64,000 nt of DNA from contig NC_057749.1 of NCBI RefSeq assembly GCF_004010195.1, positions 9,027,787-9,091,786 of the forward strand. The letters run 5' to 3'. The translations under genes and the position numbers were made by a program. Within the stretch, counting starts at the first letter, position 1. The number at the start of each line of letters is the position of its first letter. Under the pieces are notes generated by a model. It was not told the origin of the DNA. It saw only the letters and a list, made by a program, of their open reading frames with translations, and made no database searches. The stretch is from Chiloscyllium plagiosum (Eukaryota). This document shows, piece after piece, positions 16,416 through 55,715 of the stretch.

Positions 16416-17203
16416 TGTTATGGACCAGGCCAGATCCCCTCAAAACATTTTAAGAAGGTCGTGTTTGGTGCTGGAAAAGCACAGCAGGTCAGGTAGCATC
16501 TGAGGAGCAGGAGAATCGATGTTTCTGGCGTAAGCCCTTCATCAGGATCTCTTCGGATGCAGCCTGACCTGCTGGGCTTTTCCAGCACCAAACTCTCAAC
16601 TCTGATCTCCAGCATCTGAAGTCCTCACTTTCTCCCATTTTTAAGAAGGTAGCCCAGTCCCTAACTTTATGAGTTGTTTTAAGAAGATGTAAGGTGAGTA
16701 TTCCAGGAGCGACACAGCTGGTCAAACCACTCCTCTTTAAACAAAACAGAATTTATTTACACACGAACAAAAGAAAACCAGATTTAGATTAACGTAACTA
16801 TTTGAAAACCCGACCAAATCAAAAGCGCAACTGAACAAAGAGCTGTTCCGATTTCCTGCAACTTCCCAGAAAAACGCCCCTGGAAAATTCAAATACACGT
16901 TCTTACAGGAGAGAGAAGTCAGAGAGAGAGAGAGGATCAGCATAGAGCTGTTTCATTGACTCCTCAGCTAAAAACTAACCCAAAACTAGAAAAATCCCTG
17001 AACTGGGAGAACTGGCCACTCCCCGTTCATTTTACAAGTGTTTTAAAAAGAAACCTGAAAGCCTTTTCTGATGGTTGACTTAGACAGCATCTGTTAGCCA
17101 TTCTTAAAGTCACGAGTTCAGACATTTCAGCACCTCTGCCTTTACGACCCCTCATGAAAAAAACAAGAATAGAATAACCCTGGTAAAGGAGCAGCATTGT
17201 CAC
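16416..17203 (-). mobile_element. Solo-LTR-like element (TG...CA), interrupted by a foldback element
   Basis: Starts tgttatggaccagg and ends ..attgtcaca; the reverse complement of this start ends the copy at about 56060-56616; a third partial copy at about 15148-15400. Confidence 0.6.
16460..16635 (-). mobile_element. Foldback element with minimal hammerhead motif
   Basis: Inverted arms; minus-strand CTGATGA-A-GGGC-TTAC-GCCA-GAAAC-ATC at 16518-16545; TSD CATTTT(T)AAGAAGGT at 16446-16459 and 16636-16650. Confidence 0.8.
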
Positions 17204-17650
17204 ACACTAACTCATCACTTCCAACAGAGTCAAGCCCCATTACTAGGGCTTTACAGCAGACATGGAATGGTAGCTGAGGTGATCTGCTGAGGCCAAAGCA
17301 CTTGACTCATTAAGGAGTACATGTAAAGGAGAGATGTTGAGCCTGACATTGTGAAACCCCCACACTCACGTTGACCTAATTCGCTTTTTGCAAAAGCCTG
17401 ATGAGTGGAACCCTGCAACCAGCTCTCGCCCTTTCTCCATCTTAATATTACAATCTGATGCAGACTGGTTAGGGCTGAGAACTGAGTTCAGAAATTTATC
17501 TTCAGAACGTGAATCTTGGTGAAATGGGAGATGGGTTGCTGAAGCTTTTACTCTTGCACTCATTAGGACAAATGACACATTTCTAATGGTCACAGCAATG
17601 TACTCGAGGGAGTAAAGGATGCTGATCAGTTGGCAATTCGACTCTGATTT

Positions 17651-17815
17651 AGGCAAGCAGGAGGCTGGAAGAACACAGCAAGCCAGGCAGCATCAAAAGG
17701 TGGAGAAGTCAATGTTTCAGGACTGAAGAAGGGTTCTACCCAAAACGTTGACTTCTCCACCTCCTGATGCTGCCTGGCTTGCTGTGTTCTTCCAGTCCCC
17801 TGCTGGTCTACCTTG
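17651..17815 (+). mobile_element. Foldback element with degenerate hammerhead motif
   Basis: Inverted arms around CTGAAGA(17723)-A-GGGT-TCT-ACCC-AAAAC-GTT. Confidence 0.75.
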
Positions 17816-18237
17816 GAATTCAACATGAATACTTTTTTTTTGTCTCTAACCAAGTTAATTCTGAATGGCTGAGCTATTGTCATAGAGAAAGCAACAGGTA
17901 ATTATAGGCTCCGCAAGCTCCTGGGTAATTGAAAACGTTGCAAGATTTTCAACTTGTATTTACAAGGTTATGAATACATCCTCTTTTTTTACATCCCTGG
18001 GATGTGGGCATTGCTGGCTTACCCATCCCTAATTGTCCAGAGGGCAATTCAACATCAGACACATTGCTGTAGGGCCTGGACCCAAATGTTTTCATGATTA
18101 ATGAGTCTGGAGTTACGTGTAGGTCAGTCCAGGTGAGGATGGCAGCTTCTTTGCCTAATGGACATCTGTGAACCAGATGGGTTTTTCTCTGACAATTGAT
18201 TATGAATCTTCGATCATCATTAGACATCAGTAGAGAA

Positions 18238-18572
18238 GGGGCACGGTGCCTCAGTGGTTAGCACTGCTGCCTCACAGCGACAGGGATTCGGGTTTGATTC
18301 TACCCTCGGGCGACTGCCTGTGTGGAGTTTGCACATTCCCCTCGTGTCTGTATGGGTTTCCTCTGGGTGCGCCGCTTTCCTCCCACAGTCCAAAGATCTG
18401 CAGGTTAGTGTGGATTGGCCATGGAAACTTGCCCCGTATTGTCCAGGGATGTGCAGGCTAGGTGTGTTAGCCTGGGAAATGCAGGCATTAGGGTAGGGAG
18501 TGGATCAGGCTGGGCTGCACTTCAGGGGGTCAGTATGGTCTCAATGGGCTGAATGGCTTGCTTCCACACTGT
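18238..18572 (+). mobile_element. HE1-type SINE
   Basis: Same family. Confidence 0.85.
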
Positions 18573-18998
18573 GAAAATGAACTCTTGACTTCAGATTTTT
18601 CATTAAATGCAAATTACATCATTAGGCATGGTGGGATTCAAATCCTGGTTCCCAAAATATTCCCTGGGTCTCTGGATTAATAGTCTAGATATTATACCAC
18701 GAAGCCATTGTCTCTCCGAATGAGCCATATTACAATCTCAATTGATTATCTTCCATGGGTTATTAGTGTAGCTATAGACACACTCCGGATTGTTTAGCAT
18801 CTGCTGTGGAGCCAAAACCAATAGCTCACTAGCAATTAGTTCGGTATTGTCCTGTCTGTTCTGTGGAATGCAAGACAAAAAGCTATAGCAACACATCACT
18901 TTTCAGTAAGATTCAAACAGTGTTACCATATTACGATCCTGAAAGAGTAAAGGTCCTAGATGGCAGGATGCAGAATAGCTAATGTAATGGAATTACTT

Positions 18999-19317
18999 GG
19001 GGTCGCTCGGTGATTAGCATTGCTGCCTCATAGCACCAGGGACCCAGGTTCAATTTCCACCTTGGGTGACTGTCTGTGGAGTTTGCTCATTCTCCCTGTG
19101 GGCTTCTCCTGGGTGCTCCAGGTTCCTCCCACAATCCAAAGCTGTGCAGGCCAGGTGAATTGGCTATGCTAAATTGCCCATGGTGTTAGGTGTATTAGTC
19201 AGGGGTAAATATGGGGTAGGGGAATGGGTCTGGGTGGGTTACTCTTCTGAGGGTCAGTGTGGACTTGTTGGGTTGACTGGCCTGTTTCCATATTGTAGGG
19301 AAGTTAATCTAAACTAA
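18999..19317 (+). mobile_element. HE1-type SINE
   Basis: Same family. Confidence 0.8.
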
Positions 19318-19454
19318 TCCCATAATAGTGAATGAAAGATATAGGCTTTTCATTAGGAATCTGAAACAGTCAAGAAAGCGAGTCACAGCAGACACAGTTT
19401 GGTGGTTTCATACGGTCATTTTCCATCATGTATCAGATTATTCTTGACGGAGTA

Positions 19455-20218
19455 TTACTGTACAGCTTGGAAACAGACTCTTTGGTCCAACTCGTCTGTG
19501 CCCAACCAGATATCCTAAATTAATCTATTCCCATTTGCCAGCATTTGGCCCATATCCCTCTAAACCCTTCCTAATCACATACCCATCCAGATGCCTTTTA
19601 AATGTTGTAATCATAGCCATCTCCACTTCCTTTGGCAGTTCATTCCAAACATGCACTACCCTCTGCGTGAAAAGTGAGACATGCAAGTGCCTTTTAAATC
19701 TTTCCCCATATCCCTCTAAACCCTTCCTATTCACATACCCATCCAGATGCCTTTTAAATGTTGTAATCATAGCCATCTCCACCACTTCCTTTGGCAGTTC
19801 ATTCCAAACACGCACTACCCTCTGCGTGAAAAGTGAGACATGCAAGTGCCTTTTAAATCTTTCCCCTCTCATCTTAAACCTACGCCCTCTAGTTTGGGAC
19901 TTCCCTACCCAGGGAAAAAGGTCTATTTATCCTATCCATTCCCCTCGTGATTTTTCTAAACCACCAGAAAAGGTCACCGCTCAGCCTCTGATGCTCCAGG
20001 GAAAACCGCCCCAGCCTATTCAGCCTCTCCCTGTAGCTCAAACCCTCCAACCCTGAAAACATCCTTGTAAATCTTTTCTGAATCCTTTCAAGTTTCCCTG
20101 CATCTTTTCTACAGTACAGAGACCAGAAGTAGGCACAGCATTCCAAAAGTGGCGCCACCAATATTCTGCACAGTTGCAATATGATCTCCCAACTCCTATA
20201 CTCAATGCACTGACCAAA
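19455..20218 (-). mobile_element. CR1 LINE 3' fragment with internal tandem duplication
   Basis: ORFs 19525-19872 and 19889-20179; the FTQRVV..WNELP segment appears twice. Confidence 0.9.
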
Positions 20219-21239: not shown

Positions 21240-23300
21240 CATTGACGTTGCCAGGTTTAGAGGGAGATACTAAATAGGCTGGGGCTGTTTTCGCTGGAAC
21301 ATCAGAGGCTGAGGGGTGACCTTTTAGAGGTTTTTGAAATCATGAGGGGCATGGATAGGTTGGATAGCCAAAATCTTTTCCCCAGGGTAGGGGAGTCCAA
21401 AACTAGAGGGCTTAGGTTTAAGGTGAGAGAGAAAAGATTCTAAAGGGAAGCTTTTTCACGCAGAGGATGGTGCATGTGTGGAATGAGCTGCCAGAGGAAG
21501 TGATGGAGGCTGGTACAATGACAGCATTTAAAAGGCATCTAGATGGGGACATGAATGATAAGGGTATAGAGAGATATGGGCCAAATGCAGGCAAATGGGA
21601 CTAGATTAATTTAGGATACCTGGTCAGCATGGATGAGATAGATTTAGGGTATGTTTGTATGCTAAACAACTCTATGTCTCTATGATCTGGAGGTGCCGGT
21701 GTTGCACTGGGGTGTACAAAGTTAAAAGTCGCAAAACACCAGGTTATAGTCCAACAGAGTCATTTGGAAACACTAGCTTTCGGACCATTGCTCCTAATTA
21801 ATCACCCAGAGAAAGAGTAGCACTCCGTGCTTCCAAATACACCTGTTGGCCTATAACCTGGTGTTGTGCGATTTTTAACTATGACTCTATGGCTGTATAT
21901 CTTTAAACTTTTGTATCTTCTGCCTGATGGAAGAGGTCAGAGAAGAGATTATATGGGGTGGCAAATGGTGAGGATGACACAAAGAATCTGCAGACGGATA
22001 TAGACAAGTAATGGAAGTGGCCAAAAACTAGGCAGATAGAATATAAGAAAACGTGAGGTTATGCAATTTGACAGCAAGAGTAGAGAAGCTGTCTATTATT
22101 TAATTGAAGAAGAACTGCAGTAATTTGCAGCAAAGAGAGATATGGGCATCCTTGTACATAAGTACCAAAATGCTAGCATTGAAGTTCAAAGGTAAATGGG
22201 GCAGTTCGTATGGGGCCTTAATTTCGAAAGGAATGGAATGTGAAGTTAGAGAAGACTTGTTAATGCTATACAAAGCACTAGCTAGACCTCACCTGTGAAC
22301 AGTTCTATTTGTCTAAAGAAAGATATATTGGCATTGGAGGCAATCCAGACAAAGTTCACTAGTTTGACCCTGGGTATAGAGAGATTTTCTTATTAGGAGA
22401 GGTTGAGTCCGCACTCATTGGAATTTAGAAACATGTGAGCCAACCTTATTGAAATGTACAGGTCACCTGCAAGGGTAGCTGCAGAAAAGTTGTTTCCCCT
22501 GCGGGAGAGTTTAGGATCAGAATGCATAATCTCAGGATGAGGGTTTCCCCTGTTCGAACAGAGATGAGGAGGAATTTCTTCTCTGAGTGAATCTGTAGAA
22601 TTCTTCACCACAAAGGGCTGTCCAGGTTGACACTTTAAGTATATTCATGGCTGAGATTCACAGATTTTTAATCAGGAGGTTTATAAGGAAAAGACAAGAA
22701 AGTTGAATTGAGGATTCAGATCAGGCATGATCTCATTGAATGGTGGGGCAGACTCAAATTGAGTGACCAACTGCTCCTACATCTTTAGGATCTGTTCTGT
22801 TATAGGCTTGGAGGAGATTAGAGAGTCAGTGTTGTGGTAGGGGTGAACAAGCTATGTAGAAATGTGAATAACAAAAGTAATATGAGGAATGGCTGAGGAC
22901 TCTGGGTCTGTACTCGATGGAGTTAAAAGGATATGGGGGAGATTTGATTGAACTTTACAGAATACTGTGAGCCTGGATGGACTGGACGTGGAGAAGATAT
23001 TTCCACTAATAGGAGAGACTAGGACCTATGGCACAGTTTCACAGTGAAGAGAGGACCCTTTAGAACTGAGATGAGGAGAAATTTCTTCAGCCAGAGGGTG
23101 GAAATCATTGCCGCAGAGGGCTGTAGAGGCCTAGTCACCAGGTGCATTTAAGACAGAGATAGGCAGGTTCTTCGTTAGTAAGGGGTACAGGGAGAAGGCA
23201 CAAGAATTGGTATTAGAGACATATCAGCCATGATCGAATGGCAAAGCAGTCTTGATGGGCTGAATGGCCTGATTCTGTTCTCATATCTTATGGTCTTATG
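21240..23300 (+). mobile_element. Cluster of nested CR1 LINE 3' fragments
   Basis: Three successive CR1 3' ends (about 21240-21685, 21955-22790, 22885-23300), with LYKALARPHL and tail motifs. Confidence 0.8.
21688..21880. mobile_element. Foldback element, related subfamily
   Basis: Arms gttaaaagtcgcaaaacaccaggttatagtccaacag and ctgttggcctataacctggtgttgtgcgatttttaac; centre degenerate. Related arms at about 24980-25055 and 52782-52825. Confidence 0.7.
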
Positions 23301-25258
23301 GTGTTGTGGGAAAAAAAAAAGTTTAATTTGAGGCATTGGGAGCCAATGTAGCTTAGCAAGAATAAGGGCAATGGGTGAGACTTGGTGGATTCATTCCAGT
23401 CACTGAACTCAATCTTACTTCGGGCAGAAACTGAGTGACCGGCCAGGGGATTGGCTCAACTTCCTGAGATTCTAACCCTAATCCCAACCCTATTGCAGGG
23501 AAAGAAGCCCCATTGAAAGATTAATGCCATTACAACAACAAGTAGGTAAAAGCCTAGTGGGATTATCACTGGACTGTTAATCCAGAGACCCATGTAATGT
23601 CCTGGGGACCTGGGTTTCAATCCCACCATGGCAGGTGGTGAAATTTGGATTCTCTTAAAATCTGAAATTAATATTCAAATGATAAAACCATTGTCAGGAA
23701 AACCCATCTGGTTCACTAATGTTCCATAGGAAAGCAAACTGCAATGGTCGGGCCTACATGTGACTCCAGACCTACAACATTACAGCAATTAGGGATGGGC
23801 AATTAATGTTGTCCTGTCTAGGGACAGCTTCATCCTGTGAATAAATAAAAAAAAACTTTGACATGGGAGAGTGTTCCTTGGCTCTTCACAGAAGGGTTCC
23901 CTTTTAATACCTGATACCAGACTACATTATGTATCATACTACTGAGTGCAGGAGCAATGCACCCCTGCTTCAGTTGGATAGAACACTGGGGGTGAGACTG
24001 AACTTGGAGGGTTGTGTGTAGTTTTGGTCCTCTTGCCTATGGAAGGATGTACCTGCCCTAGAGGAGTACAGCTGAGGTTCAGCAGATTGGTTCCTGGGAC
24101 TGCCCAGCAAGGCCAAATTCAGGAGACTGGGCCTATCTTTGAAAGATGACAAACAACTTGATAGAATTCTACAAGAATCTTAAAAGGGGCAGACAAAGTG
24201 TAGTTTCCCCGGTTGTAGGATTTAGAACCAGTGGGAGACAACCTCAGAATAAAAGACTGAGACCGAATAAAAGTCAGTTAGGCCAGAGGCAAGAAGGAAC
24301 ACTTTCTCTCAGAGGATGGAATTCTCTACCCCTGGGAACTATAGAGACTCAATCACTGCATACGTTTAAGGCAGAGACTGAGAGATTTCTAGCTACTCGT
24401 GCCGTGAAGGGATATGTGGCAGTACAAGAACATGGCGTTGAGGTGGGTGATCATCCAGGATAAAGAATGACAGAGCAGGCTAGAGGGGCTGAATGGCCTG
24501 TTTGCTATGTCCAACTGACCCGAGATAAACACTCATTTTTATGATCAGAGATTGCACACACATCTGAGCATGGAATATCATTCTCTCAAATCTCAGCTTA
24601 TAAACGAATGAGAACATTTTAAGGTTTTGTGTTGCAAGCGCAGGTGCACGTTTCCATCAATCTCTTCATTCCAAGCGGCGACATTTGGGTGGGTGTAAGT
24701 CTGTCATCAACTGTAGCAACTTAATCGCATCAGTCAGCATCACAATGGTGTGCCTTAGATACAGTGTTTACTACACTGGGGTTTGCTTGTGTTTAATGTG
24801 TGTCTCCTGTGCTATTTCAAGTGAGATCATGAGCCCTTTAAATTGGTGTCAGAAATTGAACACAAAAATGTTTCACAAAGTCAGTAACACCTTGTACTAA
24901 TGGAAACATAAACAGACTTAACAGGAATATAGATACCAATACCAGCTCCAATTGCATTGTAAAGTTGCTATAATCCAAAGTTGGAAGTCGCAGGCCACCA
25001 GGTTATAATCCAACAGGTTTATATGAAATCACAAGCTTTCGGAGCACAGCCCCTTTGCCAGTAACCTTCCAACCCATCCCCCCCCAGTCATCTTTCCAGC
25101 CCCACATCCTCCCTTCCATTCCACCTGCCAACCCTTCCTTCCAGCTACCAATTGGATTCATCCCTCCCATGGACCAACCAGGTCTTACCCACTACCCGTG
25201 TTCACCTATCACTACCTCCCCTCTCCACTTTATCTGTAGCTCCCCTAGCCCCACATCC

Positions 25259-25293
25259 AGTCCTGAAGAAGGGTTATACCCAAAACGTTGACT
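25259..25293 (+). ncRNA. Minimal type-I hammerhead ribozyme motif (one core mutation)
   Basis: AGTC-CTGAAGA-A-GGGT-TAT-ACCC-AAAAC-GTT-GACT: stem I AGTC/GACT, stem II GGGT/ACCC; the G of GAAA is replaced by A, consistent with CpG decay. Confidence 0.6.
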
Positions 25294-26637
25294 TCTCTAC
25301 CTTCTGATGCTGCCTGGCTTGCTGTGTTCGTCCAGCCTCCAGCTTGTCTACTTTGTATGGACTGCATTCACAACTCTCTGAAACTGATGGTCGCTAATAC
25401 CATCCAAGTTAGTTCCATTGACATGAAAAAGGTGTATCAAGCAGATGGCATTACGTTTGAATCTGTACTGATACTCCTGTTACTTTACCAGATGAAAATT
25501 CCATCATAAGCTGCCTCTGAGGCCCAGTTACATTAAATACAGAGACCTCTTTTGACAATGACATATTTACTGGAGGATGCATTGTCTGAAAGCATTTTTG
25601 GGAGGAGTTGATCGTATTACTGGACAGAGTCACAGAGAGTTCCTTGTGTTCACAGCCTGTACCTTCGTCCAAGTCTTTTAATACCAGTTACAGTGTGAGT
25701 GAAGTGCTTGGTAACGTGCAAAGTTAATGATCTGTTCCACATTAGGCATAAACGACAGGCAATGCAATATCACAAGCTTTGCTAGCGCACAAACAGAAAT
25801 ATCTGCTGTGTTTTTGGTTCGACACTGATACCTAGGAGTCTTTCTTTGTGAACCTGAATATCTCAATTAATAAAGTGCATGGGTGTAGTTGGTCTAAGTA
25901 TGTACATATTTTTGGACACTGGCTTATGTATTGCTTTAAATTAATATTTGTGTAAATGTTGTCTCCTAAATAAATCTTTTGATTGCAAACAGATGCTGTA
26001 CTCTTTTGTTTGTCCACAGAAGTCTCTGTGTAATTCTCGTTCCCTCTTCTCCAGGAGGTGCTGAGTCACATTAGGAAGTAGGTCCATCATGATTATCTCT
26101 GTTCCTCTGAAAGGGGGTACATGGAAGTGAACATTAAACACAAGCTCATCACTGCTTGTGCTGGAGATGTATTGGGTGGTGGCATGGCAATGAACTCAAG
26201 GCTAATGCTCCGAGAGACATAAATTCAAATCTCCACCATGGATCATGATGAAATTTGAATTCAATAAAATTCTGGGATTAAAGCTAGGCTAATGCCAACC
26301 ATGTGGAAACTTACATGGTTCACCATTGCACTTTAGAGAAGGAAATCTGTCTTCTCACCTGGTCTGGCCTACATATAATCCACCAGTAATGTGGTTGATA
26401 GCCAATAAACTACTCAGTTAAACAGCAATTAATGGTAACCTTACCATGATTATTTTTTTTAAAATGTCTTCCTGCAGAAACCATCTTCTATAAGGATGTG
26501 ATATCACTAGAGGGGGTACAGAGGAGGTTCACTAGGATGTTGCCTGGGATGGAGAAATTCAACTTTAAGGAGAGACGAGAGAGGCTTGGATTGTTTTCAT
26601 TCGAGCGGAGAAGACAGAGGGGGGGGACAAGACTAAG

Positions 26638-27137
26638 NNNNNNNNNNNNNNNNNNNNNNNNNNNNNNNNNNNNNNNNNNNNNNNNNNNNNNNNNNNNNNN
26701 NNNNNNNNNNNNNNNNNNNNNNNNNNNNNNNNNNNNNNNNNNNNNNNNNNNNNNNNNNNNNNNNNNNNNNNNNNNNNNNNNNNNNNNNNNNNNNNNNNNN
26801 NNNNNNNNNNNNNNNNNNNNNNNNNNNNNNNNNNNNNNNNNNNNNNNNNNNNNNNNNNNNNNNNNNNNNNNNNNNNNNNNNNNNNNNNNNNNNNNNNNNN
26901 NNNNNNNNNNNNNNNNNNNNNNNNNNNNNNNNNNNNNNNNNNNNNNNNNNNNNNNNNNNNNNNNNNNNNNNNNNNNNNNNNNNNNNNNNNNNNNNNNNNN
27001 NNNNNNNNNNNNNNNNNNNNNNNNNNNNNNNNNNNNNNNNNNNNNNNNNNNNNNNNNNNNNNNNNNNNNNNNNNNNNNNNNNNNNNNNNNNNNNNNNNNN
27101 NNNNNNNNNNNNNNNNNNNNNNNNNNNNNNNNNNNNN
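26638..27137. other. Assembly gap (500 N)
   Basis: Run of N. Confidence 1.
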
Positions 27138-27540: not shown

Positions 27541-29945
27541 TGAGCAGATGGTTTGGAAGGAGCTGTTTTTGTAAGGTGTGTTCAGGAGGGTTTCCTAACT
27601 CAGTATATTAACAGGCCGACAAGGGGAGAGGCCATTTTGGATTTGGTGCTCGGCAATGAGCCGGGGCAGATGTCAGATCTTGCGGTGGGAGAGCATTTTG
27701 GTGATAGTGACCACAACTGCCTCACATTCTACATAGCTATGGAGAAGGAGTGAAGCAGGCACAATGGGAGGATATTCAATTGGGGAAAAGGAAACTATGA
27801 TGCTATCAGACGTGTGTTGGAAAGCATGGACTGGGAGCAATTGTTCCACGGGAAGGGCACTATAGACATGTGGAGACTGTTTAAGGAACAGTTGTTGCGA
27901 GTGATGCACAAATGTGTACCTCTGAGACTGGCAAGAAGGGGTAAGATAAAGGAACCTTGGATGACGAGAGCGGAGGAGCTCCTCGTCAAAAAAAAGAAGG
28001 CAGCTTATGTAAGGTGGAGGAAGCAAGGGTCTTGCTCAGCTCTAGGGGATTACAGGCAGGCGAGGAAGGAGCTCAAAAATGGTCTGAAGAGAGCCGGGGG
28101 GGGGCACAAAAAAGGCTTGGCAGGAAGGATTAGGGAGAATCCAAAGGCACATGTATGTGAGGAATAAGAGAATGATCAAAAAGAGTAGGGCCGATCAGGG
28201 ATAGCATAGGGAACTTGTGTATAGAGTCTGAGGAGGTAGGGGAAGCCCTAAATGAGTTTTTTGCTTCTGTCTTTGCTGAAGAAAAGGACCTTGTAGTGAA
28301 TGAAACCATTGAGGAGCAGGGAAGCATGCTGGAATAGATAGAGATTGAGGAAGCTGATCTGCTGAAAATTTTGACAAACATTAAGATTGACAAGTCGCCA
28401 GGCCCGGACCAGATTTGTCCTCAGCTGCTTTGGGAAGCGAGAAATGTGATTGCTTCGCTGCTAACGAAGATCTTTGTATCCTCCCTCTCAACCGGAGTCA
28501 TACCTGAGGACTGGAGGGAGGCAAATGTAATTCCTCTCTTCAAGAAAGGAAATAGGGAAATCCCCGGCAATTACAGACCAGTCAGTTTCACGTCTGTCAT
28601 CTGCAAGGTGTTAGAAAGGATTCTGAGGGATAGGATTTATGACCATCGGGAAGTACATGGCTTGATTAAATGCAGTCAGCACGGCTTTGTGAGGGGCAGG
28701 TCATGCCTCACAAATCTTATTCAGTTCTTTGAGGATGTTACTAGACAAGTTGATGAGGGTCGAGCGGTGGACGTGGTGTGTGTGGACTTCAGCAAGGCAT
28801 TTAATAAGGTTCCCCATGGTCGGGTTGTTCAGAAGGTCAGGAGGAATGGGATACAGGGAAATTAAGCTGTCTGGATACAAAATTGGCTGGTCGACAGAAG
28901 ACAGCGAGTGGTAGTGGAAGGAAAGTATTCTGCCTGGAAGTCAGTGGTGAATGGTGTTCCACAGGGCTCTGTCCTTGGGCCTCTACTCTTTGTAATTTTT
29001 ATTAATGATTTGGATGAGGAGATTGAAGGATGGGTTAGCAAGTTTGCAGACGACACAAAGGTTGGAGGTGTCGTTGACAGTATAGAGGACTGTTGTAGGC
29101 TGCAGCGTGACATTGACAGGATGCAGTGATGGGCTGAGAGGTGGCAGCTGGAGTTCAACCTGGATAAATGCGAAGTGGTGCATTTTGGAAGGTCAAACTT
29201 GAAAGGTGAGTACAGGATTAAAGACAGGATTCTTGGCAGTGTGGAGGAACAGAGGGATCTTGGTGTACAGGTACATAGATCCCTTAAAATGGCCACCCAA
29301 GTGGACAGGGTTGTTAAAAAAGCATATGGTGTTTTGGCTTTCATTAACAGGGGGATTGAGTTTAAGAGCCGTGAGACCTTGTTGCAGCTCTATAAATTTT
29401 TGGTTAGACCGCACTTGGAATACTGTGTCCAGTTCTGGTCACTCTGTTATAAGAAAGATGTGGAGGCTTTGGAGAGGGTTCAGAGAAGGTTTACCAGGAT
29501 GCTGCCTGGAATAGAGGGCTTATCTTATGAAGAGAGGTTGACTGAGCTCGGACTTTTTTCATTGGAAAAAAGAAGGAAGAGAGGGGACCTAACTGAGATG
29601 TACAAGATAATGAGAGGCATAGATAGAGTTCATAACCAGAGACTTTTTCCCAGGGCAGAAATTGTTAACACGAGGGGTCATAGTTTTAAGCTATTTGGCA
29701 GAAAGTATAGAGGGGATGTCAGAGGTGGGTTCTTTACGCAGAGAGTTGCGAGAGTATGGAATGCGTTGCCAGCAGCAGTTGTGGAAGCGAGGTCATTGGG
29801 GATATTTAAGAGACTGCTGGACATGCATATGGTCACAGACATTTGAGGGTTAGTACATTAAGTTTACCTCACACATGAGGATCAATGGTCGGTTCAACAG
29901 CGTGGGCTGAAGGCCTGTTCTGTGCTGTACTGTTCTATGTTCTTT
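27541..29945 (+). mobile_element. 5'-truncated, decayed CR1-clade (HER1-like) LINE ORF2 with reverse transcriptase
   Basis: Fragmented ORFs with ILDLVL..SDH (endonuclease end), KSPGPDQI, NYRPVS, QHGFVRGRSCLTNL, DFSKAF, GVPQGSVLGPLLF, KFADDTK, LVRPHLEYCVQFW; stops and frameshifts; 3' tail tgttctatgttct. Confidence 0.95.
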
Positions 29946-32132: not shown

Positions 32133-32357
32133 ACAAAACAGAAATTGCAGGAGAAACTCAGCAAGTCTGGCAGCATCTGTGGAGAGAAAGCAGAGTTAAC
32201 AGTTCTAATCTGGTGATCCTTTGACAGAACCTCTACTAATTCTGATGAAGGGTCACTGGACCCGAAACGTTGGCATTACTTTCTCTCCCCAGATACTGCC
32301 AGACCTGCTGAGTTTCTCCAACAATTTCTGGTTTTTTTTCAGATTTCCAGTTTGTTT
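32133..32357 (+). mobile_element. Foldback element with intact hammerhead core, nested in a tRNA-derived SINE
   Basis: CTGATGA(32242-32248)-A-GGGTC-ACTG-GACCC-GAAAC-GTT(32271); roughly 90-bp inverted arms; degenerate duplication taatgcccagggga / taacgtcctgggga. Confidence 0.8.
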
Positions 32358-35264
32358 TAACGTCCTGGGGACCCAGGTTTAAATCTTTCCATGGCAGATG
32401 GTAGAATTTGAACATAATGAAAATTTGGAGTTAAAAGTCTAATGATGACCATGAAAGCATTGTTGGTTCGCTAATGTCCATTAGGGAAGAAATTTGCTGG
32501 GTCTGGACTAGTGCGATTTCAGATCGACAGCAACATGGTTGACTCTTAATTGCCTTCTGGGTAATTAGGGAGGGGCATCAAATGTGATCTAACCAGCTTG
32601 TTGATGAATTCAAAAAAAGTGAGATATTTTTAGGGTGGGAGGAGAAAGACTTTAAAAAGACACGAGAGGCTTTTTTCTTAGACAGAGTGTGGTTCACATG
32701 TGGAATGAATCTCCAGAGGAAGTGTTGGATGCAGATAGTTACAACATTAAAAGACAGTTAAATAAGAACATGAATAGAAAATATTTGGAGGGATATGGGC
32801 AGGCAGGTGGGACTAGTTTAGTTTGGAATTATGGTTGGCATGGAGTGGTTGGGCTGAAAGCTCTGTTTCTGTGCTGTATGACTCTGACAGTGAAATTAAG
32901 AACTAACCATAATAATATCCTTACAACAGCTGGGAAATCGGGAAGAAGAGGGCATCAGTTTAAGGTTAGAGGGGAAAGAATAAAAGGGAATCTAAGAGGG
33001 CAACTTTTTTTTTTACACAGAGGGTGGTACGCATATAGAATGAGCTGCCAACAGAAGTGGTTGAGGGGGGAACATTAACAACATTTAAAAGACATTTGGA
33101 CAAATACGTGGATAGGAAAGATTTAGAAGGATATGGGCCAAGTACAGGGAAGTAGGGTAAGCGTGGATGGACATTTTGGTCGGCATAGATCAGTTTGGGC
33201 CAAAGAGCCTGTCTGTGTGCTGTAGGACTCTATGACTCTAACAGTGACTGATCATTTGTACATGGAGCTGTACCATCATGCTGCTGTTGACACAAAACTG
33301 ACACCTCGTGAAACCCAAGTCCCACCTACTTATGCGCACAGTTTGTAAGCAATGAATGTCAACAGTTCACACCAGCATAGTGCTTGGTCTTTGGATATTT
33401 CCAGGTACGAATGGCAGTTACTGGATTCTCTGAGGGGGTCAAGTCATATCCTGTCATTTATGATAAAGAAAACTGTAAGATTAAAATAGTTAGATATTTA
33501 GTTGGATGGTACAGTTTTTGACTGGGAGCTGAAATTTATGAAATTTAAAAAGCAATGCAGTAGGAATGAAAACTAGTTTAATAGGCTGGAGCAACTAACA
33601 AGGTATAGTTGTTCAAAAAATACAGTAACCTAAGCAGCATCAAGGTTGTCTAATCTCCCCTGCCAATCTATCCCTGGCACTGTGAGACAGCAATGCTAAT
33701 CATTGTGCCACCCATGTACACTAGTTCATGGCTCCCCGAGTAACAGAAATATCTTCTGAATACGTACCCCCTGTCAGATCCCCTCATAACCTTACATGGG
33801 CAATCAAGGCCTAATCAAATACCTGTCCAATAGGAAGGCGCTCAGGTAGTAACTAGGACCAGTCAATCAACTCAGAATATAAGCAAAGTGCAATGCACCC
33901 AATGAAATCAGGAAAGCACAAAGTGTGCAGCAGAGACTGCTCGGACAGATTTGGGGTATTACCGGTAGCAGTATGCTTTATTTCACCTCCGGCATCCCCC
34001 CTGCACAGTAGGAAGAAAGATAAGTGTAAATTCTCTGCAGATTGCAGCTTTCTTTGATCCCAAAGCTAAGTGTTTAATTGTTTTAAAATAAATCATTTGC
34101 TTATTACTGAAATGGAATACATGTTGACAAAACTTCTTGACTTGCTCTCATCAGGGCCAATGCAAGAATGTCAAATTTGAAACAATTTATACTCCAGGAG
34201 AAAAAGGTTGGAACCTAAATAATTGGACGAAATTAATTTGGCATATAAAGTTCAGGAATTGTAAATGAGGAAAGCATGATATGTCTAATTACACATTGAT
34301 TTTACCACAGTTTATAGGCTGCATGCACATATGATTGACACGCTGGCAATACATGAACTGGAAGAGGGGTCTAATGGTGCAGTGGTATTGTCTCTACCTC
34401 TGGGTCAAGAGGTCCAAGTTCAAGTACAACCTGCTCCAGAGGTGAGTCCTAACATCGCTGAACAGGACGATTAGAAAATATCTATATGAACAGGAGGAGG
34501 CCATTCAGCCCCTCAAGCCTGATCCAATATTCACAGTTGATCTGTTTCTGAGCTCCCTCCAGCCAACTTGTCCCTCAGTTGGCTAGGCTAGCAAGAAAGC
34601 TATTGATAGGTAGGGCAACCTACACACCTATAGACTGCTACCATCCAGTCAGCTGGCAGAAAAGTCACGTGTGAGGCAATCGCACTGACTTCACAGATAT
34701 TATTACACAGAATCTTACAGCAGAGGAGGAGGCCACTCAGCCCACTGTACCTATCCAACTCATCAACAGAGTTCAAGCATCTGCTAACTTCCCTTTCAAG
34801 GATTTATCCTGTTCCTATTTGGAGCCTCCTATTGTGTTGAGTCCATTTCCACCAAAGTTTCAGGCAGCGCATTCTAAATCACATCAGCTCCTGTATAAAC
34901 CTGGTTCCCATCAGCCTCCCTCCCAGATGCTGCCTCACCTGCTGCGCTTCTCCAGCAACACATTTCCATCTCCCTCATTCTTTCGCCAATCAGTTTAATG
35001 TTGAGTCCTCTGACAGTTTAAATATCTTATCCTAATTGCTCTATCAAAACCTCTCATAAATGTACACACCTCTATTAAACCTCCTCACCTTCTCTGTTCT
35101 ACAGAGAGTGCTTCCAGCTTCACACACTTCATTACTGAAAAAATGATGCACTTGAGACAAAATCACTGATTTTATTCATCCGATTCTGGATTTTGAAAAT
35201 TCTAGACTGTATGGCTTCCTGTATCAAAGGGATAACTAATCTGTCCATATATGTAAGATTTTTT

Positions 35265-36110
35265 ATTCACTTGTGAGATGTGGGCATCGCTGGCTGGGCC
35301 AGTGCTGTTCACTGGCCATCCTCAAGAAGATGGGGTTGAGCTGCCTACTTGAATCACTGCAGTCCATATGCTATAGGGACACCCACAATGCCCTCAGGGA
35401 GGAAATTCCAGGACTTTGAGCCAGTGACACTGAAGGAATGGTGATATATTTCCACGTTAGGATGGTGAGCAGCTCGGAGGGGAAATTGGAGGAGGTGGTG
35501 CTCCAATGTATCTACTGCCCTTGGCTTTCCAGATGGCAATGATTGAGGGTTTGGAAGGCGCTGTCTAAAGATCGTTGGAGAATTTCTGCAGTACATCTTC
35601 TAGATTGTACACACTGCTACTGAACGTCTCTGGCGGAGGAAGTGAGTGTTTGCGGATGTGGTGCCAATCAAGCAGACTGCCTTATGCTGGATGGTGTCAA
35701 GCTTTTTGAGTGCAGTTGGGGCTGTACCCATCTAAGTGAAGAGTATTCCAGCACACTCTTGACGTCCGGCTTGTAGGTGATAGACAGACTTTGGGGGAGA
35801 CAGGACATGAGTTACCTGCAGTATTTCTAGCAGGAAGTGAGACTGCAGATGCTGGAGATCAGAGTCAAGAGTGTGGTGCTGGGAAAGCACAGCAGGTCAT
35901 GCAGGAGAACCGACGTTTTAAGCATGAGGATGAAGAGCTTATGCCCGAAACGTCTGTTCTCCTGCTTCTCGTATGCTGCCTGACTGGCTGTGCTTTTCCA
36001 GCACCACACTCTCAACCAGTATTTCTAGCCTCTGACCTGCTCTTGTCGCCACTGCGTTTACTGTATATGGTGAGTCCAGGTGAGTTTCTGGTCAATGGAA
36101 ACCCTATGTA
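35265..36110 (-). mobile_element. Decayed LINE (CR1/L2 group) 3' fragment, interrupted by a foldback element
   Basis: SFSVTGSKSWNFLPEGIVG motif; similar pieces at about 44760-45010 and 51810-51900. Confidence 0.65.
35832..36016 (+). mobile_element. Foldback element with hammerhead remnant
   Basis: GATGA-A-GAGC-TTAT-GCCC-GAAAC-GTC (about 35929-35954); perfect TSD CAGTATTTCTAGC at 35819-35831 and 36017-36029. Confidence 0.82.
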
Positions 36111-47276: not shown

Positions 47277-48589
47277 GCAAATAATTGCCCATTTAGCAGG
47301 ATACTTCAAAAAAAAAGGAGGAAGCTATAGATCAGGAATTGGGAGGGGATTGGAAAGCCAGGCTGAACAGATGAGTTTTCAGTGTCTTTTTGAAGATGGG
47401 GAACAACATGAAAAGAGAGAGGAGTCTTGGAAGACAGAGCAAGGCAGTGATGGCTAAAGGTTTCAGAACAGACAACTGGGCAGAGGGAGAGTTGGTGGTA
47501 AACATGATCAACCTTAGCATGCTACAGTCACATAGCCTGCACTCGATCACAGTGTAGGTGCAGCCTTAGACTCTCATTTAGGGAAATAACTGCAGAAAAG
47601 CTAACGCCCATGGAGATCCATCAGGAGAGGCGGAAGGGACATTGCAAGTTGATGCGGATGAGGGAAATCATTTACAGCGGCTTTGACATACATTGAAATT
47701 CACTGCAGGTCACAGAACAGCAACATAAAATGTCTGAATAGTAAAAGTTCCTCCTGCCATTGCACAATAACTATACTAATTAACTGCAGTTAAAATTGTG
47801 CCATTTAATTTCCAGTTAGATTAGTGAATCAGTCAGGTCAAAAGAGGATTGAAATGTCAACATTCTCATTTACGATCACAAGACTCGGCTGCATTATTAT
47901 AGCTGTCAGTGTGAATCCATTATCAAACCACCCCCATGAGTCCAGAAGTTAAGCTAATGTGCAAAACATCTTCCACTGATGGTCTATACAATATAAGAGC
48001 ATACACATAGACAGTAGAAGCAGGAGCAGACCCTTTGAACCTGCTCCACCATTCTCTATAATCAGGGCTGATCGTTCGCACTTTCTCCCCATACCCTTTG
48101 ATCCCTTTAGCTCTTAGAACTATATCTAACTCCTTCTTGAAAGCTTTCGAAGTTTTGTTCTCAACTGCTTTCTGTGGCAGAGAATTCCACAGGGTCACCA
48201 CTCGCTGCGTGAAGAAATTTCTCCTCACTCAGTCCTAAATGGCCAACCCTGTATCCTCAGTCTGTGACTTCTGGCTCTCCTCTCCCCAGTAATCAGAAAC
48301 ATCCGTCCTGTGTTTACATTGTCCCGTTGTATTAGAACTTTCTAGGTTTCTAGGATATTCTCCTCTTTAGTCTAAATGTCAGTGAATATTATCCGAACTG
48401 ATTTCTTTCATACGTCAGTTCTGCTCTCCCAGGAGAAATGAAACTTGCTCTCTAATTACCAATATAATGCTATTGTTGTTGTTTCCTGAAGCATCCCAAT
48501 CTGAAATGACTATAATTGTTGTGATGAGCATTTTGCAGCATTATTGAAAGCCGCATTGGAATGATTAACCCATTCTATACGGAAGGCAA

Positions 48590-49012
48590 AAGTGAGGACT
48601 GCAGATGCTAGAAATCAGAGTCTAGATTAGAGTAGTGCTGGAAAAGCACAGTAGGTCAGGCAGCATCCGAGGAGCAAGAGAATCAATGTTTTGGGCAAAA
48701 GCCCTTCATTAGGAGCCGCTAAAGCCTTTGCTAAGGGGCACTGGAACAGTCTGGGCCCACACACACGGTACTGAGAACACGCTGAGAGACACAACCTCCA
48801 GTCTGAGCAGTCCCTCCAGGGCTAAAATAAAACAAAGAACTGCAGATGTTGAAGATCTAAAACAAAAATAGAAATTGCTGGGGAATCTCAGCAGGTCTGG
48901 CAACATCTGTGGAGAGACAGAAACACACTTAACATTTCTTGCCCAGTGAACCTTCAGTTCTGAAGATGGGTCACTGGATTCCAAATGTTTCTCTCTCCAC
49001 AGATGCTGCCAG
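48590..49012. mobile_element. Two adjacent hammerhead-type elements (single arm about 48590-48714; foldback about 48822-49012)
   Basis: Minus CTAATGA-A-GGGC-TTTT-GCCC-AAAAC; plus CTGAAGA-T-GGGTC-ACTG-GATTC; arms match the other copies. Confidence 0.7.
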
Positions 49013-49019
49013 AAATAGA

Positions 49020-49995
49020 TGCTGTCAGCACTGAAATAAACCCTTCAGTCCAACTCATCCATGCCAACCAGACATCCCAATCTCACCTAGTTCCATCTGC
49101 CAGCATTTGGCCCATATTCCTCCAAACCCTTCCTATTCATATACCCATCCAGATGCCTTTTAAATGTTGCAATTGTACCAGCCTCCACCACCTCCACTGG
49201 CAGCTCATTCCAAGCACGCACCACCCTCTGTGTAAAAAAGTTACTCCTCCATTTCTTCTTAAATTTGTCCCCACTCATCTTAAACCTATGCCCTTTAGTT
49301 TTGGGCTCCTCCAACCTTAGGATAAAGAGCTTGTCTAATTATCCTATCTATGCCCCTCATGATTTTATAAACCTCTATAAGGTCACTCCTCAGCCTCCAA
49401 TTATCCAATGAAAACAACCCCAGCCTATTCAGCCTCTCCCAATAACTCAAACACTCTGGTTGCAGCAACATCCTTGTAAACCTTTTCTGAACCCTTTTCT
49501 GAACAGGAAAGATATGGACACTTTGGTAGAGGGAGCAGAAGAGGTTTACCAGGATGCTGCCTGGATTGGAGGGTATGAGCTATAAGGAGAGGCTAGAAAA
49601 ACCTGGGTTGTTTTAGCTGGAGAGGTGGAGACTGAGGGGAGAGTTGATAGGAATCTATAAAATTATGAGATGCGTAAATGGGGTTGACAGTTGGAATCTT
49701 TTTCGAGTTGAAATGTCTAATATTAGGAGGTTTTCCTTTGATACGAGAGGGGGAAAGTTCAAAGGCGATGTGAGAGGGAAGTGCTTTTACACAGAGAGTG
49801 GTTGGAGTCAGAAAGGCACTACACCAGGAGTGGTTGTGGAGGCAAGTATCATAGGGGTGTTCACGGGGCTTTTAGATAAGCAAGGAATGGAGAGATAGGG
49901 GCCAAGAGCAGGCAGAAGGAATTCATTTAATTTGCCATCATGTTCAGCACAACAATGGCTGAAGGGCCTGTTTCTGTGCTGTACTGTTTCAAGTT
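49020..49995. mobile_element. Two oppositely oriented CR1 3' fragments (- about 49020-49495; + about 49505-49995)
   Basis: ORF 49087-49314 (-) and ORF 49644-49898 (+) both match the CR1 C-terminus. Confidence 0.8.
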
Positions 49996-50755: not shown

Positions 50756-51139
50756 AGTGTGTGTGTGTGTGTCTGTGTGTGTGTGTGTGTGTGTGTGTCT
50801 GTGTGTGTGTGTGTGTGTGTGTGTCTGTGTGTGTGTGTGTGTGTGTGTGTCTGTGTGTGTGTGTGTGTGTGTGTGTCTGTGTGTGTGTGTGTGTGTGTGT
50901 GTCTGTGTGTGTGTGTGTGTGTGTGTGTCTGTGTGTGTGTGTGTGTGTGTGTGTCTGTGTGTGTGTGTGTGTGTGTGTGTCTGTGTGTGTGTGTGTGTGT
51001 GTGTGTCTGCTGTGTCTGTGTGTGTGTCTGTGTCTGTGTGTGCCTGTGTCTGTGTGTCTGTGTGTGTCTGTGTGTGCGCGCCTGTGTGTGTGTCTCTGTC
51101 TGTGTGTGTGTGTGTCTGTGTCTGTGTCTGTGTCTGTGT
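50756..51139. repeat. (TG)n microsatellite with 26-bp higher-order period
   Basis: C interruptions at 50773, 50799, ... 51007, exactly every 26 bp, followed by a degenerate TGTC/TG tail. Confidence 0.97.
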
Positions 51140-52116: not shown

Positions 52117-52199
52117 CTGGGTGAGGGCCTGCACCTCATTCAGTGAATTCAGGGCCGTGTCCCGCTGTTCCTGGAGCTCGCTGCTTCTGGCATTGTAAT
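52117..52199 (-). CDS. Coiled-coil protein gene, exon
   Basis: ctgctctttag|AT TAC...ACC CAG|gtatgt; (D)YNARSSELQEQRDTALNSLNEVQALTQ; 83 nt, phase 1 to 0. Confidence 0.85.
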
Positions 52200-52689: not shown

Positions 52690-53325
52690 AATGGAGGCAC
52701 TATGGTCAGGAAAGCAGAACAACAAATCTACTTCCTCAGGAGGCTAAGGAAATGTGGCATCTCCGTAAAGACACTTGTCAACTTTAACTTTGTGCACTCC
52801 AGTCCAACACTGGCATCTCCAAATCACAACTTTTACAGATGCACCATGGAAAGCATTCTATCTGGATACATTAAAGTTTGATACGGCAACTGCTCTGCCC
52901 AGGACCATAAGAAACTGCAGAGAGTTGTGACCACAGCCCAGTCCATCACACAAACCAACCTTCCAACCATCTACACTTCTCACTGCCTCAGGAAGGCAGC
53001 CAACATCATCAAAGACCCCTCCCACCCCGGTTATAGTCTCTTCCAACCCCTTCTGTCAGGCAGAAGATACAAAAGTTTAAACACAAAAGTTTACATACTG
53101 ACAAATCGAAGAACAGCTTCTTCCCCGCTGTTATCAGAGCTCAGAATAGACCTCTCAAATTTCAAATCTAATGTTGATCTTGCTCTTTGTGCACCTTCTC
53201 TGCAGCTGTAACATTGTATTCCTCACTCTGTTCTATTACTCTAATGCACTTTGTATGGTATGATTTGCCTGTACTGCACGCAAAACAGAACTTTTCACTC
53301 TACTGAGGTACAATAATAGATCAAA
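52690..53325 (+). mobile_element. Rex1/Babar-like LINE 3' fragment
   Basis: KAEQQIYFLRRLRK; TAQSITQTNLP..KAANIIKDPSHPGYSLFQPLLSGRRYKS; same family as 40125-40935 and about 21015-21240. Confidence 0.75.
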
Positions 53326-55026
53326 TTTCACATCCTTGATATATCCTTGAAATTGCATCAGCCAGCAAAACTTCCCTGTTAAGATCTCAAAGTGAAAGAA
53401 AAACTAACAAATCAAAAGGGAGAGAAAGGATTTGCATTTGTATAGTAACTTCCATAAGCTCAGAATATCTCAAAGAGCTTTATAAGCAATGATGCACTTT
53501 ACTGGAGTAGCCTCTATTGCGTGTCGGAAAAGTGGCGTCCGATTTGTGTGAGGTGTTTCTTCAGTGCAGTGTTTAAGATGTTTTTTAATCAACCTGTTCG
53601 GAGATGCTGTGGCACACTCCTGGAGTAGGTGGGACTTGAACCCAGGCCTCCTGACTTAAAGTACAAACACTACCAACTGTGCCACACTTCCCAGTGCAGT
53701 GTTCAATGCTTCTGCCCTTGATTATGTGAGTCTATTTACAATTGATGTGCACTGTGCTTGATTGGAGTGGACTGTGACGAAAGTAACCAAAGCTGTAGAG
53801 AGAACCAGAAGGGAAAGCAGTAGCATGGAACAGATATTGTGAGCCATTGTGACTAAAAACTATTACACACAGAGGCTGGAAAGTGAGACACATATAGATT
53901 TAGTATACTTTTGGCCGAACAGACTTGATGGGCTATAGGGGCTTTTCTGTACTGTATGATTCTATATCAATCAATGTCATCTCTGTATTGCTATGTGACC
54001 TAAAACAGACACCATAATTTACCAGCAGGATGGATAACCTGGGGAGGCAAGGGCTTAGGCCATATTATTGCTGGATTGTTAATCGAGGTAATGTTCCAGG
54101 CAACTGGGTTCAAATGATGCCATGGCAGATGGTAGAACTTTATTTCAACAAAAAATTTGGAACTAAGAATCTAATGATGACCATGAGAGCATTGCTGATT
54201 GATGGTGAAAGTCCATCTGGTTTATTAATGAAAGAAATTGCCATCCTTATCTGGTCTGGCCTACACATGACTCCAGACCCACAGCAGTGTGGATGACTCT
54301 TAAATGCCCTCTGGGCAATTAGGGATGGGCAATAAATGCTGGCCCAGCCAGTAACACAGTCATCCCGTGAATGAATTTTTTTTTAAAAATGAATGATCTA
54401 CCATAACGTGGAGGAAGGTACATGTCCTCATGTCATTTCGTTGGCCTCTTACTCTGCTACTACAACATATTAAAACAGAATTCATGATGGAGGCACCCAG
54501 TAACAGGAACTATTGAGATCGTGATAGGATGGAAGTTAGCTTCAGGTGAAAGAGACAGAAGCAGCCGATAAATTTAAGAAATAATGACAGCAGGAAGGAC
54601 AGGTGACCAAAATAAACAATGATCAGCAGGAGCGAAACAGGCGATGAAGGAATAATGAAAGAAAGAGCGAGTGAGAAAACTAAAGGGAGAAAGAGAGCCG
54701 CAACAAACATCAGGAATGAGAGAGGTGGTTAATAATGGAAAAACCAAGAAAGGGGGAGAGAGAGAAATAACAAAAAAAAAATCAGGGAAAATAAAAAGTC
54801 AAAACCAAGGAAGAAGATAACAAGCATTCGGTAAGAAAGAGGTTTAAAAATGAACCAATAGTAGGGACTTAGAAACCACAACAATCAAGCACCACTATCA
54901 TCTCTCATTGGCTGAACAGATCACCCTTCAGCCAACCTCATTCAGGGGAAAGAGGGACAACGATAAGAGATTACTACCCAGGGAATAAATCACACAGGGA
55001 GACCACAACAACACGGTGAACTGTAC

Positions 55027-55091
55027 CTTGCAATTTGGAGCTTATTTCTTCCAGAAAGGAGTCACAACGAGCACATTTCCGAATGGGAGAA
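55027..55091 (-). CDS. Coiled-coil protein gene, exon with CxxC motif
   Basis: ccccttcttctgttgcag|T TCT CCC...CAA G|gtacag; SPIRKCARCDSFLEEISSKLQ; 65 nt, phase 2 to 1. Confidence 0.85.
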
Positions 55092-55451
55092 CTGCAACAG
55101 AAGAAGGGGAAACATTAATAGTTTCTGAAGAGCTAGCCAGCGACATTACCAGACAAATGTTCTCATATCCAACTCCTTTTCACATTGAAATTTGAATGTG
55201 GTTATTTAAGAGGGCAGTGCCTTTAATGTGTCTAATTGCATGTGTTATAGTTCAGGGGGAGCCTGTGTTGCACTTTTCCCTGCATGTTGCAACCTGGAGC
55301 TGTGGATGATGAAGGTACAGAGGGTCCAACAATATTTTCATTTCATGGCTGACCAAGAATTCATCTGGCTCATACCGTTTGCCACTAGCTTGTGTTGGAA
55401 GGATTTGCAGGGTGCTCCGTAACCAAACAGGTCGAGTAGATAGTGATGTAG

Positions 55452-55665
55452 AGGGTGGCGCTGGAAACGCACAGCAGGTCAGGCAGCATCCAAAGAGCAG
55501 GGGAGTCAACGCTTCAGGCACAAACCCTTCATCAGCAATGTGATGAAGAGCTTATGTCCAAAACATCAACTCTCCTGCTCCTCTGAAGCTGCCTGACCAG
55601 CTGTGCTTTTCCAGCACCACACTTCTTGACTCTGATCTCCAGTATCTGCAGTCCTCACTTTCTCC
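55452..55665. mobile_element. Foldback element with back-to-back hammerhead remnants
   Basis: cttcatcag-caat-gtgatgaag at 55527-55548; perfect TSD TAGATAGTGATGTAG at 55437-55451 and 55666-55680. Confidence 0.85.
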
Positions 55666-55715
55666 TAGATAGTGATGTAGTGTGACAATACTGTGGCTTT
55701 AAAAGGTGTATTTAT

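Follow-up and report, generated by a model that had tools for sequence, protein, structure and literature searches.

Insertions in which the pseudo-long terminal repeats (pLTRs) of a Penelope-like element (PLE) lie inverted and head to head, with a tail on one side, were reportedly described by Evgen'ev and Arkhipova. In PLE insertions, an inverted and 5'-truncated copy adjoins the element and a tail of 30-40 bp is found at one end only (Craig et al. 2021, PMC8557442). Arkhipova et al. 2013 (PMC3846280) describe inverted pLTRs with a 31-bp tail on one of them and target-site duplications (TSDs) of 8-10 bp in rotifer examples, and they state that pLTRs can contain the first codons of an open reading frame (ORF). 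We analyzed a window of 64,000 nt from Chiloscyllium plagiosum (assembly GCF_004010195.1, contig NC_057749.1, 9,027,787-9,091,786, forward strand) and found 12 loci of one repeat superfamily that are likely to be fossil insertions of the 3'-terminal module of PLEs.

Two further bodies of work bear on these repeats. The PLE protein of an anole (Poseidon PAc) nicks and extends both strands; its reverse transcription begins at two internal sites, which set the limits of the tail, in an AC-rich loop ~85-92 nt beyond the cut made by the ribozyme; sequence immediately downstream of the ribozyme is enough of a template, and cleavage by the ribozyme requires the protein (Frangieh et al. 2024, PMC11167929). 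Minimal hammerhead ribozymes of PLEs are dispersed by the thousands in fish, coelacanth and frog genomes, mostly as single motifs; 'dual' motifs, separated by 100-700 bp and lying on opposite strands, have also been noted (Cervera and de la Pena 2014, PMC4209133). Minimal dimer-type hammerheads are also attributed to Lunse, Weinberg and Breaker 2017, as cited in PMC6765202. Circular RNAs are produced from the non-LTR retrozymes of animals, which are arrayed head to tail in tandem (Cervera and de la Pena 2020, PMC7229834), and vertebrate retrozymes, including those of one chondrichthyan, are tied to PLE pLTRs in a recent preprint (Li, Clavereau and Pollet 2026, bioRxiv 10.64898/2026.07.22.740005).

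The repeats fall into four families and occupy about 1.9 kb, or 3% of the window (summed from the coordinates of their parts). There were five loci of family A, two of family B, three of family C and two of family D; seven are foldbacks (A1, A2, A3, B1, C1, C2 and D1) and the remaining five loci consist of single arms or remnants. An nhmmer profile made with 16 arms of families A, B and C recovered these 16 arms at 10 loci and no others at E<1, and BLAST with one arm from each of these families found the identical 16 arms at 10 loci. Identity between families A, B and C over the common arm was 45-71%. An initial annotation had listed dispersed foldback elements lacking ORFs and poly(A), and each place that it named does hold a repeat as described, all belonging to this one superfamily; the element at 21688 is a foldback of family D (with an unrecognisable CUGAUGA box), and those at 25259 and 48590 proved to be single arms. 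Neither an ORF nor poly(A) was seen within the elements.

The arms have a common layout. We aligned the 16 arms of the three related families with MAFFT and read them 5' to 3' in the sense of the ribozyme. An arm begins with 0-4 nt, the box CUGA(U/A)GA, one extra nucleotide and a helix II hairpin of 4-5 bp, and continues with GAAAC-GU(C/U) and about 25 variable nucleotides. A strongly conserved block follows, GAUGCUGCC(U/A)G(A/G)C(C/U)UGCUG..UUCCAGC, here called the ATG block. The arm then finishes either at a short end in AC-rich sequence or after a further tail of 25-42 nt. Counted by hand on the alignment, the distance from the predicted cut is 56-62 nt to the short end and 94-98 nt to the long end of family A, these ends lying in CACCACAC-like sequence. 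The tail block GAU(C/U)UCCAGCAUCUGCAGU (in DNA, GAT(C/T)TCCAGCATCTGCAGT) is common to families A and C and is therefore part of the template rather than filler. Ten or 11 of the 16 arms begin 0-4 nt from the CUGAUGA box, and none clearly extends beyond it. RNAalifold predicted a GAUGCUG/CAGCAUC helix with an inner hairpin in the 3' module (-4 kcal/mol), a fold without covariation support. The individual loci are as follows.

A1, 16460-16636, minus strand: foldback of family A; the left arm, in minus-strand sense, has a hammerhead at 16518-16545 and a short end, and the right arm, cut short near the ATG block, bears a tail of ~40 nt.
A2, 35832-36016, plus strand: foldback of family A; the right arm has a hammerhead at 35928-35954 and a short end, and the left arm is truncated within the helix II loop and bears a 32-nt tail.
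A3, 55452-55665, plus strand: foldback of family A with hammerheads at 55540-55567 (plus) and 55508-55535 (minus); both arms extend to the CUGAUGA box, 4 nt separate them, and the right arm has a 42-nt tail.
A4, 48588-48713, minus strand: single arm of family A with a tail and a hammerhead remnant at 48685-48712; neither a partner arm nor a TSD was found at this locus.
A5, 34915-34974, plus strand: remnant of family A, truncated downstream of the hammerhead.
B1, 17643-17812, plus strand: foldback of family B; the hammerhead of the right arm (17723-17749) has A in place of G12, and the left arm breaks off within the 3' strand of helix II.
B2, 25247-25351, plus strand: single arm of family B with a hammerhead at 25263-25289 that has A in place of G12 and a helix I of 4 bp (AGUC/GACU).
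C1, 32133-32360, plus strand: foldback of family C; the right arm bears a tail and a minimal hammerhead motif (32242-32271) that is the only intact one in the window, and the left arm has a decayed hammerhead copy (32198-32227, minus) and a short end.
C2, 48822-49013, minus strand: foldback of family C; the left arm, in minus-strand sense, bears a tail, and the right arm ends near 49013, where a copy of a different repeat family starts (49008-49300) that presumably truncated it.
C3, 3151-3262, plus strand: remnant of family C, a single tailed arm with a decayed core.
D1, 21681-21881, minus strand: foldback of family D that retains helix II (GGAGC/GGTCC) and GAAAGCUA, with a decayed box; the left arm has a tail of ~31-35 nt and the right arm a short end.
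D2, 24965-25070, minus strand: single arm of family D with GGGGC-UGU-GCUCC-GAAAGCUU.

The CUGAUGA box was unrecognisable in both family D copies. D2 (minus) and B2 (plus) lie head to head within 24965-25351, with about 190 bp of C-rich low-complexity DNA between them. No TSD was found around this pair, which may be a composite insertion or a case of chance neighbours. The flanks upstream of B2 and A5 had nothing in common when compared.

The foldbacks are inverted arms joined at their 5' ends, with a tail on one side. Their 3' ends point outward and their 5' ends meet at the centre, and the position of the head-to-head junction differs among A1, A2, A3 and B1. In all five foldbacks that could be evaluated (A1, A2, A3, C1 and D1), one arm was tailed and the other was not; tail lengths were 40, 32, 42, ~25 (after an internal deletion) and ~31-35 nt, respectively.

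Four of the foldbacks are flanked by TSDs of variable length. The duplication of A1 is ATTTTAAGAAGGT (16447-16459) versus ATTTTTAAGAAGGT (16637-16650), with 12 nt exact and 13 of 14 matching if one indel is allowed. That of A2 is CAGTATTTCTAGC at 35819-35831 and 36017-36029 (13/13), and that of A3 is TAGATAGTGATGTAG at 55437-55451 and 55666-55680 (15/15). These three had been proposed from the start and were borne out. We added a fourth by eye at B1, TTGGCAATTCGAC (17630-17642) versus TTGGAATTCAAC (17813-17824), which is ~12-13 bp long with one indel and one CpG-type change and was not picked up by a gapless TSD scan. The duplication at D1 was ambiguous (7-11 bp). Overall, TSD length varied from 12 to 15 bp across the four copies (13-14, 13, 15 and ~12-13).

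These lengths bear on the possibility that the repeats are miniature inverted-repeat transposable elements (MITEs) whose inner sequence has a chance resemblance to a hammerhead core. Their small size and long terminal inverted repeats are what a MITE would have. However, the tabulated TSDs are variable at 12-15 bp, which argues against a MITE with a fixed TSD; duplications of this length are not known from cut-and-paste superfamilies. Moreover, the ends are asymmetric, with the tail on a single side in 5/5 foldbacks, and single arms occur.

The TSDs and tails also bear on mobilization by a long interspersed nuclear element (LINE), for example a CR1-like or L2-like one, acting on an element like a short interspersed nuclear element (SINE) with the hammerhead as a passenger, as in schistosome Sm-alpha. 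Duplications of 12-15 bp are compatible with target-primed reverse transcription generally, and the window is rich in LINE and SINE copies. The elements have neither a poly(A) nor a microsatellite tail, though, and BLAST and hidden Markov model searches with the arms matched only their own family and not the LINE 3' ends that are repeated in the window. A one-sided tail and head-to-head arms are described as specific to PLEs and as absent from target-primed reverse transcription by LINEs (PMC8557442). We consider mobilization by a LINE quite improbable.

The 5' part of the arms has the signature of a hammerhead ribozyme. The core boxes C3-U4-G5-A6-N7-G8-A9, G12-A13-A14 and N-U-H occupy homologous alignment columns across families A, B and C. 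A strict structural descriptor gave one match in the window and none in 60 shuffles; a relaxed one gave four matches, all inside elements, whereas the shuffles averaged 0.65 and never exceeded 3. Exact CTGANGA...GAAAC words numbered four against 1.6 expected, and 7 of 100 shuffles reached four, so this enrichment was not significant.

Covariation, computed on 11 arms of the three families, made a stronger argument for a hammerhead than did the word counts. Paired cells amounted to 78.9%, compared with 22-48% when the partner columns were slid. Helix II was paired in 91.3% of cells and three of its pairs were changed on both sides, one of them (20-29) being C-G in four arms and U-A in four; the expectation that stem II differs between families and still pairs was thus borne out by compensatory changes. 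Pair 8-41 of helix I was C-G in three arms and U-A in three. In total, 12 cells had changes on both sides, compared with 5.4 in shuffles, and 4 of 500 shuffles reached 12.

The motif also has the particular features of the hammerheads found in PLEs. The extra nucleotide ahead of helix II (column 16) is A in 9 of the 11 arms, and the G10.1-C11.1 pair (17-32) is kept in 8. The palindromic ACGU at 15.1-16.1, with no helix III hairpin, is present in four (families A, B and C); five others are altered at 15.2-16.2, and all of these changes are the products of CpG transitions, CA or TG. Family D retains a helix II of 5 bp and has AGCU as its palindrome. Helix I is 3-4 bp long (GAUC/GAUU, AGUC/GACU and GUU/AAC). 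The extra nucleotide, the G10.1-C11.1 pair, the ACGU palindrome and the covariation together mean that all four signatures of PLE minimal hammerheads (PMC4209133) are present. These sequence features support the view that the motif has the layout of the minimal, dimer-type hammerhead of PLEs. Most of the core defects are likewise products of CpG transitions (G12 to A; ACGU to ACAU or AUGU), a pattern that presumably reflects the neutral decay expected in a methylated vertebrate genome.

Rfam found no hammerhead in these sequences. There was no match to its hammerhead families at the gathering score or at E<=10, including with the intact copy alone. The hammerhead models of Rfam include a helix III hairpin, so that this miss is expected. 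The only weak Rfam matches were to microRNA families (E 0.019-2.7, far under the gathering scores), which arise because the elements are long hairpins, and to words of small nucleolar RNAs. At E<0.5, a custom covariance model trained on the hammerhead region of 11 arms recovered those arms and no others. The detection of hairpins alone by Rfam is a point in favour of a MITE; against it, helix II covaries inside one arm, which a foldback does not explain, and the additional features of PLE hammerheads are present. A MITE is thus a most improbable origin for these repeats and one that is already largely refuted.

We observed directly the arm anatomy, the motif, its covariation, the TSDs and the asymmetry of the tails, and all four of the PLE hallmarks that could be tested were found: head-to-head 5'-truncated copies, a one-sided tail, variable TSDs and a hammerhead in the repeat. 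The enzyme and the priming on both strands are inferred from the literature on PLEs, as past activity of the ribozyme is from its motif. The module would consist of a minimal type I hammerhead, ~56-62 nt leading to the AC-rich short end, and an optional tail of ~25-42 nt. Because the elements encode no protein, it would be copied in trans by the reverse transcriptase/GIY-YIG endonuclease of a PLE. In the best-supported model, the enzyme would nick the target with a stagger of 12-15 bp, and target-primed reverse transcription would begin on both DNA strands, once from the inner start site on the RNA and once from the outer. Both cDNAs would extend approximately as far as the 5' edge of the ribozyme before being joined head to head, giving a foldback with its 3' ends outward, a tail on a single side and a TSD. 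The hammerhead would be inherited from the template, and genomic copies would decay neutrally, mostly at CpG sites.

Several observations weigh against an origin by insertion of a PLE module. The core is intact by the strict descriptor in only 1 of 14 tabulated arm segments (32242-32271), and G12 is lost in both complete copies of family B. The arms fall into three or four related families, and the independent covariation events are therefore few. Helix I is paired in 65.9% of cells, with two covarying pairs, and in foldbacks its 5' strand is confounded with the junction sequence. The failure to match Rfam hammerheads belongs here too: of the proposed hammerhead, the covarying helix II and the PLE-type layout stand, and the Rfam check and the intactness of the core do not speak for it. 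No ORF with a PLE reverse transcriptase and GIY-YIG domain was found in the window, whose sole RVT_1 match (28338-28865) is in a LINE-like context; with no such ORF in or beside the elements, they are non-autonomous or truncated derivatives at best. The proposal that PLEs mobilized these repeats as inverted dimers is thus upheld by the head-to-head copies, one-sided tails and variable TSDs and lacks an autonomous PLE in the window. A protein search with a 45-aa query from the conserved frame of the arms found no match, which is weak evidence. Arm-to-arm identity was 74-85% within one element and 72-91% between elements; partner arms are no more alike than unrelated arms, so identity does not support a common template. 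Simple random 5' truncation of a long element is not expected to give arms that mostly begin at the 5' edge of the ribozyme, as these do. Finally, in the predicted foldback RNAs the hammerhead core pairs with the opposite arm, except in the asymmetric A1.

The hammerheads within the insertions are most likely passengers. The initial annotation held that either strand would carry a ribozyme-like motif, and A3 and C1 do carry motifs on both strands. However, minimal hammerheads need a tandem dimer in sense orientation, and an inverted pair of arms does not provide one. Since, in addition, the core is predicted to pair with the opposite arm, the motifs would not be expected to cut in hairpin transcripts.

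The foldback itself might be the mobile unit. On this account, a self-propagating hairpin retroelement, a SINE-like parasite of PLEs, would be transcribed and reverse transcribed end to end, and its inverted structure would be inherited. Nearly all full arms stop at the same point, the 5' edge of the hammerhead, and C1 and C2 have similar symmetric junctions. The predicted hairpins are very stable (-66 to -132 kcal/mol), and the minus-strand RNA of A1 is predicted to place a single hammerhead at the tip of a ~45-bp helix I. On the other hand, junctions vary among A1, A2, A3 and B1, single-arm copies occur (A4, B2 and A5), and the two arms of a foldback match one another no better than they match other copies. 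The varied junctions do not settle the matter, as deletions in the centre of an inserted element could produce a similar picture, and arm identity does not separate twin priming from copying of a whole hairpin. We regard a self-propagating hairpin as unlikely, and as a better candidate than either a MITE or a LINE-mobilized element.

For insertion of a PLE module, the sharp start of the arms at the CUGAUGA box hints that the template was short and dedicated and that the arms are not random truncations of a long element. Such a mini-template would be an RNA of ~90-130 nt with its 5' end at the hammerhead edge, comprising only the ribozyme and the entry region for the reverse transcriptase. It would be the smallest natural unit mobilized by PLEs, present at very high copy number, with both strands primed and each start site used exactly once. 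We propose this only tentatively, as a possibility that is more doubtful than the insertion of a PLE module as such.

The ATG that opens the most conserved block lies at 16557, 35973, 55489, 48666, 17767, 25307, 32176 and 48906. The frame from the conserved AUG (MLPDLL.FSS...) is open through the long end in undamaged arms, and by eye several of the differences between families in this frame look synonymous. This frame could be the start of a PLE ORF, an analogy that recalls the pLTRs holding first ORF codons. A 19-nt degenerate pattern of the conserved block had 9 viral and at least 119 metagenome matches in public collections, none with neighbouring family sequence; these are therefore chance matches.

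The rest of the window contains a candidate host exon and other repeats. An ORF of 317 aa (5276-6229, plus strand) has a C2 domain (Pfam E=9.9e-13), its look-alike clusters are all eukaryotic, and it is probably an exon of a synaptotagmin-like host gene. A LINE fragment with a Pfam RVT_1 match lies on the plus strand at 28338-28865, its 3' region (29745-29827) is common to several SINE-like repeats, and there are many tRNA-like SINE copies. A degenerate, interstitial telomere-like TAACCC array is found at 11556-11733 (28 copies, 68% match, 24-nt higher-order period) and a (GT)n microsatellite of 383 bp with a 26-nt higher-order unit at 50757-51139. A 186-nt inverted repeat (62654-62839 and 63190-63375) is 90% complementary with its arms 350 nt apart and is unrelated to the hammerhead family. 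Another dispersed repeat family has short tandem duplications at 19549-19866 (159-nt unit, 2 copies) and 60599-60845 (90-nt unit, 2.7 copies), and an assembly gap of 500 N spans 26637-27136.

Insertions of this kind have already been described, and neither the element nor the ribozyme is of a new kind. The novelty first claimed for them was overstated, in that tailed pairs of inverted pLTRs, and minimal hammerheads scattered through fish, coelacanth and frog genomes, had been published (PMC4209133). Exact sequence words of the arms were not found in the paper texts searched, a search that lay outside Dfam and Repbase. What is new is small: the regular pairing of one tailed with one untailed arm, and the abrupt 5' limit of the arms at the ribozyme. 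About 3% of the window can be assigned to the PLE world and, by extrapolation, such repeats may make up a large and probably unclassified fraction of the genome. As natural examples they fit the both-strand nicking and the two start sites found in vitro for the lizard PLE, and genome-wide counts of tail asymmetry and of the 5' boundary could test the model of PLE integration. If the arms do come from a mini-template, the genome-wide statistics of their copies would offer a natural read-out of the way in which PLEs generate inverted repeats and tails, and would show what feature of the template is marked by the ribozyme.

Compared with non-LTR retrozymes, which are themselves related to PLE pLTRs, the elements are likewise non-coding, carry a type I hammerhead and occur in a non-mammalian vertebrate. 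Unlike retrozymes, they are inverted or single and not tandem; none of the eight arrays that Tandem Repeats Finder reported in the window overlaps an element. With the minimal hammerheads of PLEs they share the CUGANGA box, the extra nucleotide, the G10.1-C11.1 pair, the lack of a helix III loop, the palindromic ACGU or AGCU, a helix I of 3-4 bp and consensus families with compensatory changes. Helix II is 4-5 bp here and 7-8 bp in the schistosome families, and motif pairs on opposite strands abut directly here, in contrast to the separation of 100-700 bp reported (PMC4209133).

The layout also resembles that used by PAc, with two alternative 3' ends ~25-42 nt apart, an AC-rich inner end and a ribozyme tens of nucleotides upstream. 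The distances differ, being 56-62 and 94-98 nt here and ~85-92 nt for the mapped site of PAc, and the comparison sets biochemistry on one lizard element beside elements matched to it by layout rather than by sequence. The foldbacks depart from PLE inverted pLTR insertions in being only 170-230 bp long with no ORF between the arms, in having arms that stop at the 5' edge of the ribozyme, and in having TSDs of 12-15 bp rather than the 8-10 bp of the rotifer examples in Arkhipova et al. (PMC3846280). In anatomy, they resemble those insertions in their outward 3' ends, their junction at 5'-truncated ends, their one-sided tail of ~30-40 bp, their TSDs and their hammerhead.

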